Assembly: GCF_017348835.2 (NCBI RefSeq)
Contig: NZ_CP071375.1
DNA from: Escherichia coli
GTDB lineage: Bacteria; Pseudomonadota; Gammaproteobacteria; Enterobacterales; Enterobacteriaceae
Length of the DNA stretch: 64,000 nt
Reading direction: 5' to 3' (one strand)
The notes below the pieces were generated by a model that was given only the letters and a program-made list of their open reading frames with translations, searched no databases and was not told the origin of the DNA. Both the position numbers and the translations under genes were made by a program. Shown here one piece after another: positions 7,868 to 59,007 of this stretch. Numbering within the stretch: position 1 is the first letter of the stretch; each line of letters begins with the position of its first letter.

Positions 7868-9282
7868 CTACCCATCTGGTCTGGTTTCGCCAGGATTTAC
7901 GTCTGCATGATAATCTCGCGCTGGCTGCCGCCTGCCGCAATTCGTCTGCACGCGTGCTGGCGTTGTATATCGCTACACCACGCCAGTGGGCGGCGCATAA
8001 TATGTCGCCGCGTCAGGCTGAACTTATCAATGCTCAACTGAACGGGCTACAAATCGCGCTGGCGGAAAAAGGCATTCCTTTATTGTTCCGTGAAGTGGAT
8101 GACTTTGCCGCCAGCGTCGAAATAGTTAAACAGGTGTGCGCGGAAAACAGCGTTACTCATCTTTTTTATAACTATCAGTATGAGGTGAATGAGCGGGCGC
8201 GGGATGTGCAGGTTGAGAGAACGCTGCGTAACGTGGTGTGTGAAGGATTTGATGACAGCGTGATCCTGCCGCCTGGCGCGGTGATGACCGGCAATCATGA
8301 GATGTACAAAGTCTTTACGCCTTTTCAAAATGCCTGGCTGAAACGGCTGCGGGAAGGGATGCCGGAGTGCGTCGCTGCACCAAAAGTTCGTAGTAGCGGA
8401 TCGATAAAGCCCGCGCCATCAATTACGCTGAATTATCCTCGTCAGTCTTTCGATACTGCGCATTTTCCGATGGAAGAAAAAGCGGCGATTGCGCAATTAC
8501 GCCAGTTTTGCCAGAACGGTGCCGGAGAATATGAGCAACAACGAGATTTTCCGGCAGTTGAAGGCACCAGCCGTTTGTCCGCCAGCCTGGCAACGGGCGG
8601 GTTATCACCTCGCCAGTGTTTGCATCGCCTGTTGGCGGAACAGCCGCAGGCGCTGGACGGTGGGGCCGGTAGTGTCTGGCTTAGTGAGCTGATCTGGCGC
8701 GAGTTCTACCGTCATCTGATGACGTATTACCCCTCGTTGTGTAAACATCGTCCATTTATTGCCTGGACGGATCGTGTGCAGTGGCAAAGCAATCCCGCCC
8801 ATTTAAAGGCCTGGCAGAAAGGCAAAACGGGATACCCGATTGTTGATGCCGCTATGCGTCAGCTTAACAGCACTGGCTGGATGCATAACCGGCTACGGAT
8901 GATTACAGCCAGTTTTCTGGTGAAAGATTTGTTGATCGACTGGCGCGAAGGCGAGCGATATTTCATGTCGCAGCTGATTGATGGTGATTTGGCAGCCAAT
9001 AACGGTGGCTGGCAGTGGGCGGCTTCTACGGGTACTGATGCAGCGCCGTATTTTCGTATTTTCAACCCGACAACCCAGGGCGAGAAATTTGACCGCGAAG
9101 GCGAGTTTATCCGCCAGTGGCTACCGGAACTACGCAATGTACCGGGGAAATCGGTGCATGAGCCGTGGAAGTGGGCGCAGAAAGCAGGTGTGAAGCTGGA
9201 TTATCCGCAACCGATAGTCGAGCACAAAGAGGCGAGAGTACAAACGTTGGCAGCGTATGAGGCGGCGCGGAAGGGGAAATAA
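7864..9282 (+). CDS. phr: Deoxyribodipyrimidine photolyase
   Basis: 472-aa ORF MTTHLVWFRQDLRLHDNLALAAAC... with photolyase/cryptochrome FAD-binding C-terminal region (WMHNRLRMITASFLVKDL). Confidence 0.95.
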   Translation: MTTHLVWFRQDLRLHDNLALAAACRNSSARVLALYIATPRQWAAHNMSPRQAELINAQLNGLQIALAEKGIPLLFREVDDFAASVEIVKQVCAENSVTHLFYNYQYEVNERARDVQVERTLRNVVCEGFDDSVILPPGAVMTGNHEMYKVFTPFQNAWLKRLREGMPECVAAPKVRSSGSIKPAPSITLNYPRQSFDTAHFPMEEKAAIAQLRQFCQNGAGEYEQQRDFPAVEGTSRLSASLATGGLSPRQCLHRLLAEQPQALDGGAGSVWLSELIWREFYRHLMTYYPSLCKHRPFIAWTDRVQWQSNPAHLKAWQKGKTGYPIVDAAMRQLNSTGWMHNRLRMITASFLVKDLLIDWREGERYFMSQLIDGDLAANNGGWQWAASTGTDAAPYFRIFNPTTQGEKFDREGEFIRQWLPELRNVPGKSVHEPWKWAQKAGVKLDYPQPIVEHKEARVQTLAAYEAARKGK

Positions 9283-35011: not shown

Positions 35012-35614
35012 TTACCAGTCGATACCCGGCTGGGCCTGAATGCCGTTATCAAAAGCATGTTTGACGGGGCGGATTTCGCTTACCGTATCCGCCATTTTTA
35101 ATATCTGACTGTGGCAACCGCGTCCGGTGACAATGACACTTTGTTGTGCCGGGCGGTTTTGCAGAGAAGCGATCACTTCTTCGGTATCCAAATAATGGTA
35201 AGCCAGCATATAGGTCAGCTCATCAAGCACCACTAAGTCGTAACGCTTGTCAGCCAGCATCCGTTTGCTTTCCGACCAGACCTCTTTCGCCGCGTCGATA
35301 TCCGCTTGCCGGTTCTGTGTCTCCCAGGTAAAACCAGTTCCCATAATATGAAACTCAACCCCCAGCGGCTGGAGAAGGTTGTATTCGCCGTTGTCCCATT
35401 GCCCCTTGATGTACTGCGCAACCCCCACCGTTTTGCCATGACCCACCGCGCGCGTCACAGTACCAAACGCGGCAGTGGATTTCCCTTTGCCGTTGCCGGT
35501 GAAAACAATCAAGATCCCTTTTTTCTCTATCGCCGCTGCGACGCGCGTATCGACCTGTTCCTTCAATTTCTGTTGGCGCTGCACATGCCGTTCAGTTGAA
35601 ATTCGCGCTTCCAT
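35012..35614 (-). CDS. ATP:cob(I)alamin adenosyltransferase (BtuR/CobO/CobA family) paralogue
   Basis: 200-aa ORF MEARISTERHVQRQQKLKEQVDTRVAAAIEKKGILIVFTGNGKGKSTAAFG... closely parallels E. coli BtuR (IIIVFTGNGKGKTTAAFG P-loop, RPVKHAFD); last gene of the operon. Confidence 0.85.
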   Translation of the reverse strand: MEARISTERHVQRQQKLKEQVDTRVAAAIEKKGILIVFTGNGKGKSTAAFGTVTRAVGHGKTVGVAQYIKGQWDNGEYNLLQPLGVEFHIMGTGFTWETQNRQADIDAAKEVWSESKRMLADKRYDLVVLDELTYMLAYHYLDTEEVIASLQNRPAQQSVIVTGRGCHSQILKMADTVSEIRPVKHAFDNGIQAQPGIDW

Positions 35615-35623
35615 TCATTTTCC

Positions 35624-37276
35624 TTAATGTCCCGCAGGGCAACTGGCGCAGCGATGTTGCTGCTCAAACTGACTAAAGAAATTATTGCCTTTATCATCTA
35701 CCAGGATGAATGCGGGCAGATTTTCCACTTCCATCATCCACACCGCTTCCATACCCAGCTCCGGATATTCCAGGCAACGCAGACTTTTGACATATTCTTG
35801 CGCCAGTAACGCAGCTGCACCGCCAATACTTCCCAGATTGAAGCCGCCATGTTTGTGACAGGCATCGGTGACCTGCTGGCTGCGGTTACCTTTCGATAAC
35901 ATCACCAGACTGCCGCCAGCCGCCTGGAAGGTATCGATATAACGGTCCATTCGACCGCCCGTGGTTGGACCCAGTGAACCGCAGGCCATGTTCTCCGGTG
36001 TTTTCGCCGGGCCAGCGTAATAGACAATATGATGCTTCAGGTACTCCGGCATCGATTCGCCGCTATCCAGCCGCGCTTTTATTTTGGCGTGGGCGATATC
36101 GCGCGCCACTACGATGGGACCACTTAACGACACGCGGGTGCCTACCGGTAATCTGGCGAGATCCAGCATCACGTCACGCAACGGACGGTTTAGATCCAGT
36201 TGTACATGTTGCGCGTGATTTTCTTCCCGCAATGAGGCTGGAATATATTGCCCCGGATTGTGTTCGAGTTTTTCCAGCCAGATACCGTGTTTGTTAATTT
36301 TTGCTTTGATATTGCGATCGGCAGAACAGGAGAGCGCCATAGCTATCGGGCAAGAGCCACCGTGACGCGGCAGACGAATGACGCGAATATCATGAGCGAA
36401 ATATTTCCCCCCAAATTGTGCACCAATACCAAATTGCTGACTGGCCTCGAGCAACACTTTTTCCAGCTCAATATCACGGAATGCTTGTCCCTGCTCGTTT
36501 CCGCTGGTGGGCAAATTGTCGTAATATTTCGTTGAGGCCAGCTTGGCAACTTTTAAGGTTTGATCGGCTGAAAGCCCTCCGACGGCAAAGGCGATGTGGT
36601 AAGGCGGGCAGGCAGCGGTGCCCAGCGATTTCATTTTTTCGATTAAAAATGCGGTCAGTTTTTCTGGTTGCAATAAGGATTTGGTTTCCTGATAAAGCGC
36701 GGCTTTATTGGCAGAGCCGCCTCCTTTATTAACACAGAGGAAATGGTACTCATCACCAGCGACAGCGCTGATATCAATCTGCGCCGGGAGATTGGTTTGC
36801 GTATTGACTTCGGTATACATATCCAGCGGCGCATTTTGTGAAAAGCGCAGATTATTTTCCTGGAAAGTACTGTAAATGCCTTTACTTAAGGCTTCGGCGT
36901 CGTTACTTCCGGTCCATATCTGTTGCCCTTTACTGGCAACAATAGTTGCGGTGCCGGTATCCTGACAGTTGGGTAATACCCCTTTTGCTGAGACTTCAGC
37001 ATTACGTAATAACTGCAACGCAACGTATTTATCATTACTACTGGCCTGCTGATCGTTAAGAATGCTGGCGACCTGTTGCAAATGAGTGGAACGTAAGAAA
37101 AAAGAGGCTTCATAAAATGCCTGCCGGGCAAGCAGCGTTAATGCTTCAGGAGTGATTTTTATCACTTCTTCGCCGTCTAATTCCGTTACTGTAATATGTT
37201 GATCGCTAATTAATGTATATTCTGTACCGTCTTTATTTTGTAGAAACGGTTCTTGCCAGATAAATGGTTTGGACAT
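35624..37276 (-). CDS. fumD: Class I fumarate hydratase paralogue; probable mesaconase (2-methylfumarate hydratase)
   Basis: 550-aa ORF collinear with FumA/FumB ([45 protein letters not shown]); mesaconase role inferred from operon context. The fumD symbol is from memory of an O157:H7 report. Confidence 0.8.
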
Positions 37277-37383
37277 ATTTCACTTTTCACCTTAAACGTT
37301 AGTGTTACTTAATTGCCGTCTAACTTCATGATCCGGCTTATAAAAATGCGTAGTCATTGGCTTCAGATTGCTTAAGAGCCCCC

Positions 37384-38664
37384 TCAGGGCAGAGCAACGT
37401 TCGATTCATTGGTTTTTAATGCTTTACCCCGACAGCCCTCGCCGAAATGTTCGCCTTCCCACCGACTCACCATCGCAGCGCCCATTGCGTTACTCATGAC
37501 GTTTGTCGCGGAACGCCCCATATCAAGGAACGGATCAACGCCCATCAGCAAGATCAGCCCCGCTTCCGGAATATTGAACTGGTTGAGCGTGGCGGCGATA
37601 ACCACCATTGAGGCGCGTGGTACGCCAGCCATTCCTTTCGAGGTCAACATCAGGATCAACAGCATGGTGATTTGCTCACCGATGGATAAATGGATATTGC
37701 AGGCCTGGGCGATGAAAACTGTGGCGAAGGAGCAGTAGGCCATTGATCCAACGAGATTAAATGAGTAGCCAATGGGTAAGACAAAGCTGGCAATTTTGGG
37801 GGAAACGCCAAATTGCTCCAGTTTTTCAAGCGTTCCCGGAAAAGCCGCTTCAGAACTGGATGTGGTAAATGCCAACAGGGCGGGTTCCGAAAGGGCGCGG
37901 GTCAGGCGTCTGATGCAGGGGCCGACATAAACGATGGCCAGACCGATAAGCAGCACCCAAAGTAATAACATGGTGAAATAAAATTCACCCATAAAGATCC
38001 CGGCGCTCACCATAACGGCCAGTCCTCGTTCAGCAATCAATGCTGAAATAGCGGCGAATACGGTCAGGGGAGCGAAGAGCATGACGTAGCCAGTGAGCTT
38101 TAACATGGCATGTGCCAGCGAATCTAAGGCGTGAACGATGGCGCTGCCTTTCTCGCCAATCGCCGTCAGGCTACAGCCGAGGAAAATTGAGAACACCACG
38201 ATTTGCAAAATTTCATTGTGCGCCATGGCATCGACAATGCTGGTGGGGAAAGCATGCGAAATAAATACTTTTAGCGTAAAGGGTTCTGCCGCGACCACTC
38301 CGGTGGTTTCGGCACCGTGTGCAACAAAATTAATTCCTGTACCTGGCATGAAGAAATTTACCGTTATCAAGCCTAAGGCAATTGACAGCAATGAGGCGCA
38401 AATAAATAAAAAGAGTGTTTTAGAAAAAATACGACCAAGGGCTTTAGCATCGCCCATTTTAGCAATACCTACCACCAGGGTAGAAACCACTAACGGAGCG
38501 ATAATCATTTTTATCAGTCGTAAGAAAATCGTCGTGAATATCGATATTTCTTGCGCATAGAGTTTTGCTGTTTCCGGTGAAGCAGTGTTATTGAGCACTA
38601 CGCCGATAATCATTCCAAGTACCAGCGCCAAAAGAATCATCGTGGTTAAACTTATTTTCTTCAT
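37384..38664 (-). CDS. Dicarboxylate/amino acid:cation symporter (DAACS, GltP/DctA-like)
   Basis: ORF 37384..38685; start MKKISLTTMILLALVLGMIIG preceded by GGAGG RBS; multi-pass membrane protein of the DAACS family. Confidence 0.8.
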   Translation of the reverse strand: MKKISLTTMILLALVLGMIIGVVLNNTASPETAKLYAQEISIFTTIFLRLIKMIIAPLVVSTLVVGIAKMGDAKALGRIFSKTLFLFICASLLSIALGLITVNFFMPGTGINFVAHGAETTGVVAAEPFTLKVFISHAFPTSIVDAMAHNEILQIVVFSIFLGCSLTAIGEKGSAIVHALDSLAHAMLKLTGYVMLFAPLTVFAAISALIAERGLAVMVSAGIFMGEFYFTMLLLWVLLIGLAIVYVGPCIRRLTRALSEPALLAFTTSSSEAAFPGTLEKLEQFGVSPKIASFVLPIGYSFNLVGSMAYCSFATVFIAQACNIHLSIGEQITMLLILMLTSKGMAGVPRASMVVIAATLNQFNIPEAGLILLMGVDPFLDMGRSATNVMSNAMGAAMVSRWEGEHFGEGCRGKALKTNESNVALP

Positions 38665-38719
38665 TTTTTCCTCCATCAGGTGCACGGCGATAAATCAGAA
38701 TCAGGAGAAGTAGATGCCT

Positions 38720-55998: not shown

Positions 55999-56007
55999 GA
56001 GAATTGC

Positions 56008-56799
56008 ATGAGCAGTAACTTCAGACATCAACTATTGAGTCTGTCGTTACTGGTTGGTATAGCGGCCCCCTGGGCCGCTTTTGCTCAGGCACCAATCAGT
56101 AGTGTCGGCTCAGGCTCGGTCGAAGACCGCGTCACTCAACTTGAGCGTATTTCTAATGCTCACAGCCAGCTTTTAACCCAACTCCAGCAACAACTCTCTG
56201 ATAATCAATCCGATATTGATTCCCTGCGTGGTCAGATTCAGGAAAATCAGTATCAACTGAATCAGGTCGTGGAGCGGCAAAAGCAGATCCTGTTGCAGAT
56301 CGACAGCCTCAGCAACGGTGGTGCAGCGGCGCAATCAACCAGCGGTGATCAAAGCGGTGCGGCGGCATCAACGACGCCGACAGCTGATGCTGGTACTGCG
56401 AATGCTGGCGCGCCGGTGAAAAGCGGTGATGCAAACACGGATTACAATGCAGCTATTGCGCTGGTGCAGGATAAATCCCGCCAGGATGACGCAATGGTGG
56501 CATTTCAGAATTTCATCAAAAATTACCCTGATTCAACTTACCTGCCAAACGCCAATTATTGGCTGGGTCAGTTAAACTACAACAAGGGTAAAAAAGATGA
56601 TGCGGCGTACTATTTTGCTTCGGTAGTGAAAAACTATCCGAAGTCACCAAAGGCTGCAGATGCGATGTTTAAAGTCGGCGTCATCATGCAGGACAAAGGT
56701 GACACCGCAAAAGCGAAAGCCGTATACCACCAGGTTATCAGTAAATACCCTGGTACTGATGGCGCTAAACAGGCACAAAAACGTCTGAACGCGATGTAA
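56008..56799 (+). CDS. cpoB: Cell division coordinator CpoB (YbgF)
   Basis: 263-aa ORF MSSNFRHQLLSLSLLVGIAAPWAAFAQA... with coiled-coil and TPR-like C-terminal region. Confidence 0.9.
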   Translation: MSSNFRHQLLSLSLLVGIAAPWAAFAQAPISSVGSGSVEDRVTQLERISNAHSQLLTQLQQQLSDNQSDIDSLRGQIQENQYQLNQVVERQKQILLQIDSLSNGGAAAQSTSGDQSGAAASTTPTADAGTANAGAPVKSGDANTDYNAAIALVQDKSRQDDAMVAFQNFIKNYPDSTYLPNANYWLGQLNYNKGKKDDAAYYFASVVKNYPKSPKAADAMFKVGVIMQDKGDTAKAKAVYHQVISKYPGTDGAKQAQKRLNAM

Positions 56800-56963
56800 T
56801 GCATAACACACGACCAGAAGTCGCATTATTTCTGGTCGTGTCGTGCGAATCATAAGCAGTTGAGTGATCTACATCGAAATTTTTGTTGCGCTCAAGTCTG
56901 AAATCAGTAATATATGCCGCCGTTGCCACGGGATATCAAACAAACCGAAAGCAACGAAAAAGT

Positions 56964-57039
56964 GGGTCGTTAGCTCAGTTGGTAGAGCAGTTGACTTTTA
57001 ATCAATTGGTCGCAGGTTCGAATCCTGCACGACCCACCA
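56964..57039 (+). tRNA. lysT: tRNA-Lys (anticodon UUU)
   Basis: GGGTCGTTAGCTCAGTTGGTAGAGCAGTTGACTTTTAATCAATTGGTCGCAGGTTCGAATCCTGCACGACCCACCA, 76 nt. Confidence 0.95.
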
Positions 57040-57074
57040 CTAACCTAGTTAGTTGTAGTATCCAGCGTAGTATC

Positions 57075-57150
57075 GGGTGATTAGCTCAGCTGGGAGAGCA
57101 CCTCCCTTACAAGGAGGGGGTCGGCGGTTCGATCCCGTCATCACCCACCA
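57075..57150 (+). tRNA. valT: tRNA-Val (anticodon UAC)
   Basis: GGGTGATTAGCTCAGCTGGGAGAGCACCTCCCTTACAAGGAGGGGGTCGGCGGTTCGATCCCGTCATCACCCACCA, 76 nt. Confidence 0.95.
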
Positions 57151-57152
57151 CC

Positions 57153-57228
57153 GGGTCGTTAGCTCAGTTGGTAGAGCAGTTGACTTTTAATCAATTGGTC
57201 GCAGGTTCGAATCCTGCACGACCCACCA
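57153..57228 (+). tRNA. lysW: tRNA-Lys (anticodon UUU)
   Basis: Identical to the first tRNA-Lys; begins 2 nt after tRNA-Val. Confidence 0.95.
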
Positions 57229-57279
57229 TTAATTACGGTGGGTTCGGTGGAAGTAGTTTGTAGTATCCAACGCAGTATC

Positions 57280-57355
57280 GGGTGATTAGCTCAGTTGGTA
57301 GAGCAGTTGACTTTTAATCAATTGGTCGCAGGTTCGAATCCTGCACGACCCACCA
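57280..57355 (+). tRNA. Chimeric tRNA: valine-type 5' acceptor strand (GGGTGAT) fused to a tRNA-Lys(UUU) body; possibly a pseudo-tRNA
   Basis: GGGTGATTAGCTCAGTTGGTAGAGCAGTTGACTTTTAATCAATTGGTCGCAGGTTCGAATCCTGCACGACCCACCA; differs from tRNA-Lys only at positions 5-6 (GA instead of CG), giving G5-G68 and A6-C67 mismatches; upstream spacer is valT-like. Confidence 0.7.
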
Positions 57356-57434
57356 ATTTTAACATCAAACTCAGATGTTAAGCGTGAAGGATAACGTTGC
57401 GCCAGCAACGGCCCGTAGGGCGAGCGAAGCGAGT

Positions 57435-57452
57435 CATCCTGCACGACCCACC
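57435..57452 (+). other. Orphan 3' fragment of a tRNA-Lys gene
   Basis: atcctgcacgacccacca, identical to the last 18 nt of tRNA-Lys, standing alone in the spacer between the chimeric tRNA and the next tRNA-Lys. Confidence 0.7.
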
Positions 57453-57501
57453 AATCTTAAAGATTGGCCCCGAGTAAAAATCTTTCAGGTAACACCCGTA
57501 T

Positions 57502-57577
57502 GGGTCGTTAGCTCAGTTGGTAGAGCAGTTGACTTTTAATCAATTGGTCGCAGGTTCGAATCCTGCACGACCCACCA
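57502..57577 (+). tRNA. tRNA-Lys (anticodon UUU)
   Basis: Same 76-nt sequence as lysT. Confidence 0.95.
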
Positions 57578-57610
57578 TCCTGAATGATTAAAGCAGCATA
57601 ATCCCGCAAG

Positions 57611-57686
57611 GGGTCGTTAGCTCAGTTGGTAGAGCAGTTGACTTTTAATCAATTGGTCGCAGGTTCGAATCCTGCACGACCCACCA
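57611..57686 (+). tRNA. tRNA-Lys (anticodon UUU)
   Basis: Same 76-nt sequence as lysT; last gene of the tRNA operon. Confidence 0.95.
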
Positions 57687-57693
57687 ATGTAAG

Positions 57694-57717
57694 AAAGCGC
57701 CCTAAAGGCGCTTTTTT
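57694..57717 (+). terminator. Rho-independent terminator of the tRNA operon
   Basis: aaagcgccctaaaggcgcttttttg: GC stem followed by T6. Confidence 0.85.
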
Positions 57718-57873
57718 GCTATTCAGGCATCCCTCAATTTAACTTTGTAAACCTGATGACATAGTCAGAGCTTACTGTGCAAGCAACTCTATGTCGGTGG
57801 AATTAGGCGTAAAATGACGCATCCTGCACATTAGGCGTAATTCGAGTGACTTTTCCCCACCATTCGACTATCT

Positions 57874-57891
57874 TGTTTAGCATATAAAACA
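57874..57891 (+). promoter_or_regulatory. Candidate NadR operator upstream of nadA
   Basis: TGTTTAGCATATAAAACA, near-palindrome of the TGTTTA...TAAACA type ~70 bp upstream of the nadA start. Confidence 0.5.
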
Positions 57892-57963
57892 AATTACACC
57901 GATAACAGCGAATATGACGCTTATGTCGGTTTTAACGTTAAGCCTGTAAAACGAGATGGTAAG

Positions 57964-59007
57964 ATGAGCGTGATGTTTGATCCAGACACGGCGATTTATC
58001 CTTTCCCCCCGAAGCCGACGCCGTTAAGCATTGATGAAAAAGCGTATTACCGCGAGAAGATAAAACGTCTGCTAAAAGAACGTAATGCGGTGATGGTTGC
58101 CCATTACTATACCGATCCCGAAATTCAACAACTGGCAGAAGAAACCGGTGGCTGTATTTCTGATTCTCTGGAAATGGCGCGTTTCGGTGCAAAGCATCCC
58201 GCTTCTACGTTGTTAGTCGCTGGGGTGAGATTTATGGGAGAAACCGCCAAAATTCTCAGTCCGGAAAAAACAATTCTGATGCCGACACTTCAGGCTGAAT
58301 GTTCACTGGATCTCGGCTGCCCTGTTGAAGAATTTAACGCATTTTGCGATGCCCATCCCGATCATACTGTCGTCGTCTACGCCAACACTTCTGCTGCGGT
58401 AAAAGCGCGGGCAGATTGGGTGGTAACTTCAAGCATTGCCGTCGAACTTATTGATCATCTGGATAGTTTGGGTGAAAAAATCATCTGGGCACCCGACAAA
58501 CATCTGGGGCGTTACGTGCAAAAAAAGACGGGCGCAGACATTTTATGCTGGCAGGGTGCCTGCATTGTGCATGATGAGTTTAAGACTCAGGCGTTAACCC
58601 GCTTGCAAGAAGAATATCCGGATGCTGCCATACTGGTGCATCCAGAATCACCACAAGCTATTGTCGATATGGCGGATGCGGTCGGTTCCACCAGTCAACT
58701 GATCGCTGCTGCAAAAGCATTGCCTCATCAGAGGCTTATTGTGGCAACCGATCGGGGTATTTTCTACAAAATGCAGCAGGCGGTGCCAGATAAAGAGTTA
58801 CTGGAAGCACCAACCGCAGGTGAGGGCGCAACCTGTCGCAGCTGCGCGCATTGTCCGTGGATGGCCATGAATGGCCTTCAGGCCATCGCAGAGGCATTAG
58901 AACAGGAAGGAAGCAATCACGAGGTTCATGTTGATGAAAGGCTGCGAGAGAGGGCGCTGGTGCCGCTCAATCGTATGCTGGATTTTGCGGCTACACTACG
59001 TGGATAA
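57964..59007 (+). CDS. nadA: Quinolinate synthase A
   Basis: 347-aa [58 protein letters not shown]... Confidence 0.95.

Follow-up and report, generated by a model that had tools for sequence, protein, structure and literature searches.

A chimeric Val/Lys tRNA gene in the lysT operon of an Escherichia coli strain and its probable origin in a 79-bp deletion between valZ and lysY

The lysT operon and its fourth tRNA gene

We analysed a 64-kb stretch of E. coli DNA (64,000 nucleotides; hereafter the window), in which positions 56,000-58,000 correspond to the locus made up of cpoB, the lysT tRNA operon and nadA. The DNA flanking the operon is 95-100% identical to that of essentially all complete E. 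coli genomes searched (5,426). ARAGORN predicts a cluster of six tRNA genes, which run Lys, Val, Lys, Lys, Lys, Lys. These genes and the other features of the operon are:

56964..57039, + strand: lysT, intact tRNA-Lys(UUU), the first gene of the operon (ARAGORN; Rfam tRNA model, 79.2 bits)
57075..57150, + strand: valT, intact tRNA-Val(UAC), the only Val gene remaining in the operon (ARAGORN; Rfam, 65.9 bits)
57153..57228, + strand: lysW, intact tRNA-Lys(UUU) (ARAGORN, Rfam)
57229..57279, + strand: lysW-valZ spacer, which is the valZ leader (alignment; identical to the pig isolates PE164 and F2_81)
57280..57355, + strand: valZ'-'lysY fusion gene, with Val positions 1-6, shared positions 7-15 and Lys positions 16-76; anticodon TTT, A73 and encoded CCA
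57284..57285, + strand: G5 A6 of the fusion gene, Val-derived and unpaired with G68 and C67 (both pairs marked non-canonical by cmscan; alignment)
57286..57294, + strand: TTAGCTCAG, the 9-bp microhomology that holds the deletion joint; one of two parental copies is kept
57346..57347, + strand: C67 G68 of the fusion gene, Lys-type 3' strand facing A6 and G5 (from the sequence and the covariance-model match)
57356..57501, + strand: lysY-lysZ spacer with an RtT-like element and an orphan tRNA-Lys 3' end, unchanged relative to close relatives
57502..57577, + strand: lysZ, intact tRNA-Lys(UUU) (ARAGORN, Rfam)
57611..57686, + strand: lysQ, intact tRNA-Lys(UUU) (ARAGORN, Rfam)
57696..57717, + strand: Rho-independent terminator, a GC-rich hairpin (AGCGCC-CTAAA-GGCGCT) followed by T6 (read from the sequence)

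A terminator of the lysT operon has been described (PMC4176162). A simple promoter/terminator scan of the operon listed no promoter, and it also missed the terminator that is visible in the sequence.

The seven-gene order of the lysT operon is the K-12 arrangement, as reported in 2014 (PMC4176162). PE164 and F2_81 also have seven genes, against the six that ARAGORN finds here, in agreement with the gene counts given in the initial annotation. The window is like the K-12-type operon in its location between cpoB and nadA, in its leader, in its spacers (which are as in PE164) and in its terminator; five of the K-12-type genes are unchanged, which makes all but one of the six genes here intact. 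It is unlike the K-12-type operon in that a single fused gene takes the place of valZ and lysY.

The fused gene is the fourth tRNA gene of the cluster (57280-57355, +). Its sequence is GGGTGATTAGCTCAGTTGGTAGAGCAGTTGACTTTTAATCAATTGGTCGCAGGTTCGAATCCTGCACGACCCACCA, laid out as GGGTGAT-TAGCTCAG-TTGGTAGAGCAG..., and positions 5-6, GA rather than CG, are all that sets it apart from the window's four intact tRNA-Lys(UUU) copies. Positions 1-15 and the preceding spacer are those of tRNA-Val and a valZ-type leader. Because all 70 of the 70 bases 3' of the junction match Lys, and the 51-nt spacer and the 15 bases 5' of it match valZ, a chance resemblance can be ruled out. The initial annotation had described a Val-type 5' end on a Lys body; the sequence, ARAGORN and the alignment agree on this, with the first six bases being Val and identity to Lys beginning at position 7.

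ARAGORN calls the fusion gene a tRNA-Lys with anticodon ttt at position 34. In the Infernal scoring that the initial annotation had proposed as a check, the gene matches the Rfam tRNA model (RF00005) over its full length (1-71 of 71) at 68.0 bits, compared with 79.2 bits for the intact Lys copies, 65.9 bits for the intact tRNA-Val and a gathering score of 29 bits. The G5-G68 and A6-C67 mismatches that had been predicted are exactly the two pairs that the covariance model flags as non-canonical in the acceptor stem, 5-68 (G·G) and 6-67 (A·C), and the gene thus lacks the seven-pair acceptor helix of tRNA-Lys(UUU). It retains UUU at positions 34-36 and the discriminator A73, which is the A at window position 57352 and is followed by CCA. 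The A35 and C36 of the tRNA-Val(UAC) anticodon are absent, positions 35 and 36 being U and U. Sub-threshold Rfam hits to the YrlA and plastid UTR families over the tRNA genes were set aside, as they reflect tRNA-likeness only.

Two further elements lie near the fusion gene. One is an RtT-like element at 57287-57453 (Rfam RF00391, 54.4 bits; gathering score, 45), and the other, in the spacer between the fusion gene and lysZ, is an orphan tRNA-Lys 3' end (ATCCTGCACGACCCACCA; 57436-57455). PE164 and F2_81 have the same sequence for each, so neither has to do with the deletion considered below. The architecture of the lysT operon is in general highly polymorphic: at least 80% of positions 56800-57760 is covered in one place in 427 of the 5,426 E. 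coli genomes, spacers are short or long (35 versus 135 nt, 51 versus 149 nt) and differ by RtT-like units, and the number of genes varies.

A 79-bp gap bounded by a 9-bp repeat

The two best-matching genomes are those of the pig isolates PE164 (NZ_CP114128.1) and F2_81 (NZ_CP043542.1). In both of these seven-gene operons valZ and lysY are separate, intact and 3 nt apart. Alignment of the window with either genome shows the operon to be 100% identical save for one 79-bp gap, which extends from position 8 of valZ to position 7 of lysY and has the 9-bp repeat TTAGCTCAG at both borders. The 79 bases absent from the window relative to PE164 are TAGCTCAGCTGGG...CTCGGGTCGT, also given as TAGCTCAGCTGGG...CACCACTCGGGTCGT. 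PE164 and F2_81 have two copies of TTAGCTCAG, 79 bp apart, and the window has one; the junction reads GGGTGATTAGCTCAGTTGG, and the k-mer that identifies it is GGGTGATTAGCTCAGTTGGTAGAGCAG. This arrangement, with a direct repeat at both parental borders and one copy in the product, is that of a short-homology deletion, and the single gap bears out the earlier suggestion that valZ and lysY were joined by a microhomology-mediated event. The 5' ends of valZ and lysY are identical at 22 of 26 positions, including the exact 9-bp TTAGCTCAG, and are in direct orientation with a period of 79 bp.

Apart from the 79-bp gap there are no indels between the window and PE164, and two SNPs (positions 8698 and 45591) are the only other differences in the entire 64 kb. 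The SNP at 8698 falls in phrB; the window's allele there is the widespread one, and that of PE164 is private. On this ground we regard the window as coming from a sibling strain of the PE164 clone. Among the listed draft genomes that share a rare cpoB allele with the window, valZ is intact in GCA_034296255.1 and GCA_032490375.1, and the contigs of others end short of the cluster. The undeleted state is thus present in the closest relatives, namely PE164, F2_81 and two drafts. As the seven-gene order is also the K-12 arrangement, the polarity of the change is clear and points to a very recent deletion in one lineage. Together, these comparisons support a strain-specific 79-bp deletion that appears to have fused the start of valZ to the body of lysY in the lysT operon.

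The deletion could have arisen as follows. In the parent, valZ and lysY would have been adjacent and head to tail, 3 nt apart, and because their 5' ends are 22/26 identical, including the 9-bp run, they could act as direct repeats spaced 79 bp apart. Slipped-strand mispairing during replication, or a different form of short-homology recombination, would then remove one 79-bp period and leave behind a single gene in which the Lys body follows the valZ leader and Val bases 1-6. Slipped mispairing between short direct repeats was reportedly described as a source of spontaneous deletions by Albertini and colleagues in 1982 and by Bzymek and Lovett in 2001. The event considered here is like these deletions in that the repeats are separated by under 100 bp, the product lacks one of them along with the DNA in between, and the joint falls within the repeat sequence. 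Unlike in the classic cases, the 9 exact bases sit inside an imperfect homology of 22/26, and slippage is here the putative mechanism.

Frequency of the allele and related Val/Lys chimeras

We searched for the junction in other genomes. Junction-spanning queries found an exact match in none of the 5,426 complete E. coli genomes (0/5,426), and a scan of metagenome contigs with a 40-nt junction sequence found no match. The possibility, raised in the initial annotation, that this is the standard wild-type allele is rejected by the same count. Comparison across strains, which had also been proposed there, returned intact relatives on the one hand and related chimeras in LSJC7, in 14 E. coli genomes and in EcPF14 on the other. 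Judged from these sequences, the fusion in the window is not a singular case.

In Enterobacteriaceae bacterium LSJC7 (AMFN01000003.1), a Val-Val-Val-Lys operon ends in a gene whose 76-nt sequence is identical to that of the chimera. Although the 76 nt are the same as in the window, the species is different and the operon is of the valU-valX-valY-lysV type, so we take the LSJC7 chimera to represent an independent event. The Val genes of LSJC7 share the Lys-type D-arm, so that the crossover there could lie anywhere in positions 7-26. Another tRNA of the LSJC7 operon (2106-2181 of the extracted locus) has a valine body with anticodon TCC and is called Gly by ARAGORN; a single base separates it from two Val(TAC) neighbours, and either an anticodon-shift mutation or a sequencing error might account for it.

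A sister chimera, formed between valT and lysW, is present in 14 complete E. coli genomes, including that of APEC O2-211, with its crossover in AGAGCA (positions 21-26; junction k-mer CTGGGAGAGCAGTTGAC). Eleven of the 14 match exactly and are mostly from poultry; the remaining three, two from pigs and one from a chicken, are variant at position -1. The genomes originate from several countries and represent two backgrounds, whose cpoB flanks diverge by 1.2% and whose spacers are arranged differently. The APEC O2-211 fusion is like that of the window in having a Val 5' end and a Lys body, the G5·G68 and A6·C67 mismatches, and a location in the same operon, with six genes left. It differs in that it involves the first rather than the second Val-Lys pair and in that its crossover lies further in, giving it a Val D-loop with C16 and G20.

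A third type of junction occurs in EcPF14 (NZ_CP054230.1; junction k-mer GGCGGTTCGAATCCTGC), making three Val/Lys junction types found in all. The EcPF14 chimera is Val as far as GGTTCGA in the T-arm, where it is joined to a Lys T-loop and 3' end, and its origin is a tandem duplication, 111 bp long, of the lysT-valT interval. It occupies 865-940 of the extracted locus, and its T-stem and acceptor stem both contain mismatches. All of the chimeras keep the Lys-type 3' strand, and none has a compensatory change at 67 or 68. Clean Val deletions, in which a crossover in TCGGGT would leave a Val leader in front of an intact Lys gene, were not found. Reciprocal Lys-5'/Val-3' chimeras were found neither at the T-arm nor at the D-arm junction, where a tRNA-Val with a point change, present in one strain, was the sole hit. 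This tRNA-Val, in strain 10035210-2 (NZ_CP159152.1, 2860066-2860098), agrees with the artificial Lys-5'/Val query in 32 of 33 bases and is a single-base variant at acceptor position 5 or 6.

Automatic annotation does not mark these genes as unusual. The valT-lysW chimeras are all annotated as tRNA-Lys in RefSeq, and the EcPF14 chimera is annotated as tRNA-Val. Because pipelines label fusions as ordinary tRNA-Lys or tRNA-Val, tRNA gene counts based on annotation slightly overstate functional copy number. Non-canonical or partial tRNA genes reported as standard by automatic annotation have been described previously (van der Gulik et al. 2023, PMC9897764). The fusion gene resembles those cases in that a flawed tRNA gene passes the covariance threshold and is named as an ordinary tRNA; unlike it, they derive mainly from integrated elements or CRISPR-Cas activity rather than from fusion of neighbouring tRNA genes. 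In a literature search of incomplete coverage, we found no published description of Val/Lys fusions in the lysT operon. The allele in the window is new, and its class is a known one, a tRNA gene fused by short-homology deletion in a tandem cluster being a textbook type of mutation.

Predicted properties of the fused tRNA and competing readings

We used nearest-neighbour folding to predict the effect of the two mismatches. The intact tRNA-Lys cloverleaf has a predicted energy of -26.4 kcal/mol and the best cloverleaf-like form of the chimera one of -20.0 kcal/mol, a loss of about 6 kcal/mol that is an indication and not a measurement, as the model ignores tertiary contacts and modifications. 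A competing non-cloverleaf fold of the chimera, in which G45-C48 pairs with G68-C71 and the 5' end is shifted by one register, is predicted at -24.4 kcal/mol, and the acceptor pairs, whose predicted probability is about 1.0 in intact tRNA-Lys, drop to about 0.2 in the chimera. Because tertiary contacts and modifications are ignored, the predicted misfold may overstate the defect.

The mismatches may also affect maturation. Release of tRNAs from the lysT operon transcript requires RNase P, which works 3' to 5', and RNase E cuts the longer spacers, with sites upstream of valZ and lysZ (PMC4176162). The operon is transcribed as one polycistron within which the fusion gene sits, and the fused gene would still be co-transcribed with it. 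Given the RNase E sites upstream of valZ and lysZ, poor handling of the chimera by RNase P should not keep the neighbouring genes from maturing. The chimera itself, with two adjacent acceptor mismatches, is expected to fold, to be cut by RNase P and to persist less well than tRNA-Lys. In the classical genetics of tRNA-Tyr su3, acceptor-stem mismatches reportedly lower the levels of mature tRNA.

Charging is likely to be less affected. Lysine identity in E. coli resides in the anticodon triplet and A73, read by a class II LysRS, whereas valine identity resides in A35, together with A73, the minor determinants G20 and G45, and the G3-C70 and U4-A69 pairs (PMC9976931). The chimera keeps the UUU anticodon and A73, has U20, and lacks the valine anticodon determinants; once matured, it should thus carry lysine, read AAA and AAG, and not serve ValRS. 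The initial annotation had offered a choice between an unstable pseudo-tRNA and a lysine-reading tRNA of uncertain charging. Damage to the acceptor stem is consistent with the predicted fold, but the identity of the tRNA is less uncertain than was thought, since the anticodon and A73 are intact.

On this modelling, the product is most likely a hypomorphic, lysine-specific tRNA, and the gene is best described as a damaged lysine tRNA gene rather than a new isoacceptor. The net effect would be loss of one tRNA-Val(UAC) gene and of most of the output of one tRNA-Lys gene. Because four intact Lys genes and valT remain in the operon to buffer this loss, the change is probably close to neutral. A recent deletion that yielded a hypomorphic lysine-specific tRNA of nearly neutral effect is the explanation that we favour overall, with moderate confidence.

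The chimera may work better than we infer, given that its sister persists in 14 genomes and that its score of 68 bits exceeds that of intact tRNA-Val. In its full form, this alternative holds that the gene encodes a fully functional, or even selected, tRNA-Lys in which the mismatches are tolerated, maturation and lysylation are normal and only the Val gene is truly lost. It would fit the intact set of lysine identity elements, the Rfam score far over the 29-bit threshold, the presence of the same two mismatches in the sister chimera in several countries and two backgrounds, and the occurrence of the identical molecule in LSJC7. However, the competing fold is predicted to dominate after the loss of about 6 kcal/mol from the cloverleaf, none of the chimeras has acquired a compensatory change at 67 or 68, and all are rare (at most 14 of 5,426 genomes). 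The su3 precedent also speaks for lowered mature tRNA, and a neutral pseudogene in a redundant family would persist equally. We therefore consider full function improbable, although it is the strongest of the alternatives.

Somewhat less probable is an artefact of assembly or polishing, in which the strain would have intact valZ and lysY genes and the 79 bases would have been lost in assembling the repeated tRNA cluster. Near-identical 76-nt repeats, such as those of which the cluster is built, are a classic trouble spot for assemblers, and the allele is unique among 5,426 complete genomes, with intact sibling genomes. Collapse of repeats, however, removes whole units (periods of 78, 109, 111, 127 or 222 bp) and leaves intact genes, and 79 bp is not among these periods. 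The joint in the window lies not in a long identical repeat with loss of a whole unit but in only 9 bp of identity, which is too short for a k-mer or overlap step. Furthermore, the rest of the 64 kb is without an indel relative to PE164, which points to a clean consensus, and analogous fusions are present in many independent complete assemblies. The window is also unlikely to be an older assembly of PE164 (the PE164 record is version 2), given the difference in the phrB allele (common in the window, a private SNP in PE164).

A more speculative idea, to which we give little credence, is that Val-Lys fusions are expressed and lysylated and that their altered acceptor helix confers a distinct property that explains their recurrence and persistence in several enterobacterial lineages. 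Such a property might be escape from a tRNA-Lys-directed nuclease or toxin, or altered handling by RNase P or EF-Tu. Escape from PARIS AriB, which cleaves tRNA-Lys, is unsupported, as the mapped cleavage site (U36-A41) is unchanged in the chimera. Least credible of all is an ambiguous or switched identity, with valine or another amino acid being delivered to lysine codons and causing mistranslation: the 5' acceptor strand is Val-type and Val and Lys share A73, G3-C70 and U4-A69, but ValRS needs A35, with C36 as a further determinant, and the chimera has U35 and U36 as well as U20 in place of the minor determinant G20, neither G3·U70 nor any other foreign determinant has been created, and a mistranslating tRNA would probably be selected against, yet the sister chimeras persist.

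Under the favoured reading of a recent, nearly neutral deletion, the consequence for the strain itself would be small, with one redundant valine tRNA gene gone and one of the five lysine genes of the operon damaged. More generally, Val-Lys pairs that lie close together in enterobacterial tRNA operons give rise again and again to fused genes by short-homology deletion or duplication, and the chimeras provide natural test cases of how far acceptor-stem damage is tolerated in vivo by RNase P, LysRS and tRNA quality control.

Elsewhere in the window, transfer of the PE164 annotation places a methylaspartate mutase island at about 35012-45055 on the - strand, between the cydAB side and sucD. It encodes glmS, glmL and subunit E of the mutase and methylaspartate ammonia-lyase, together with a class I fumarate hydratase, a dicarboxylate symporter and cobO, and is presumably not part of the K-12 backbone.
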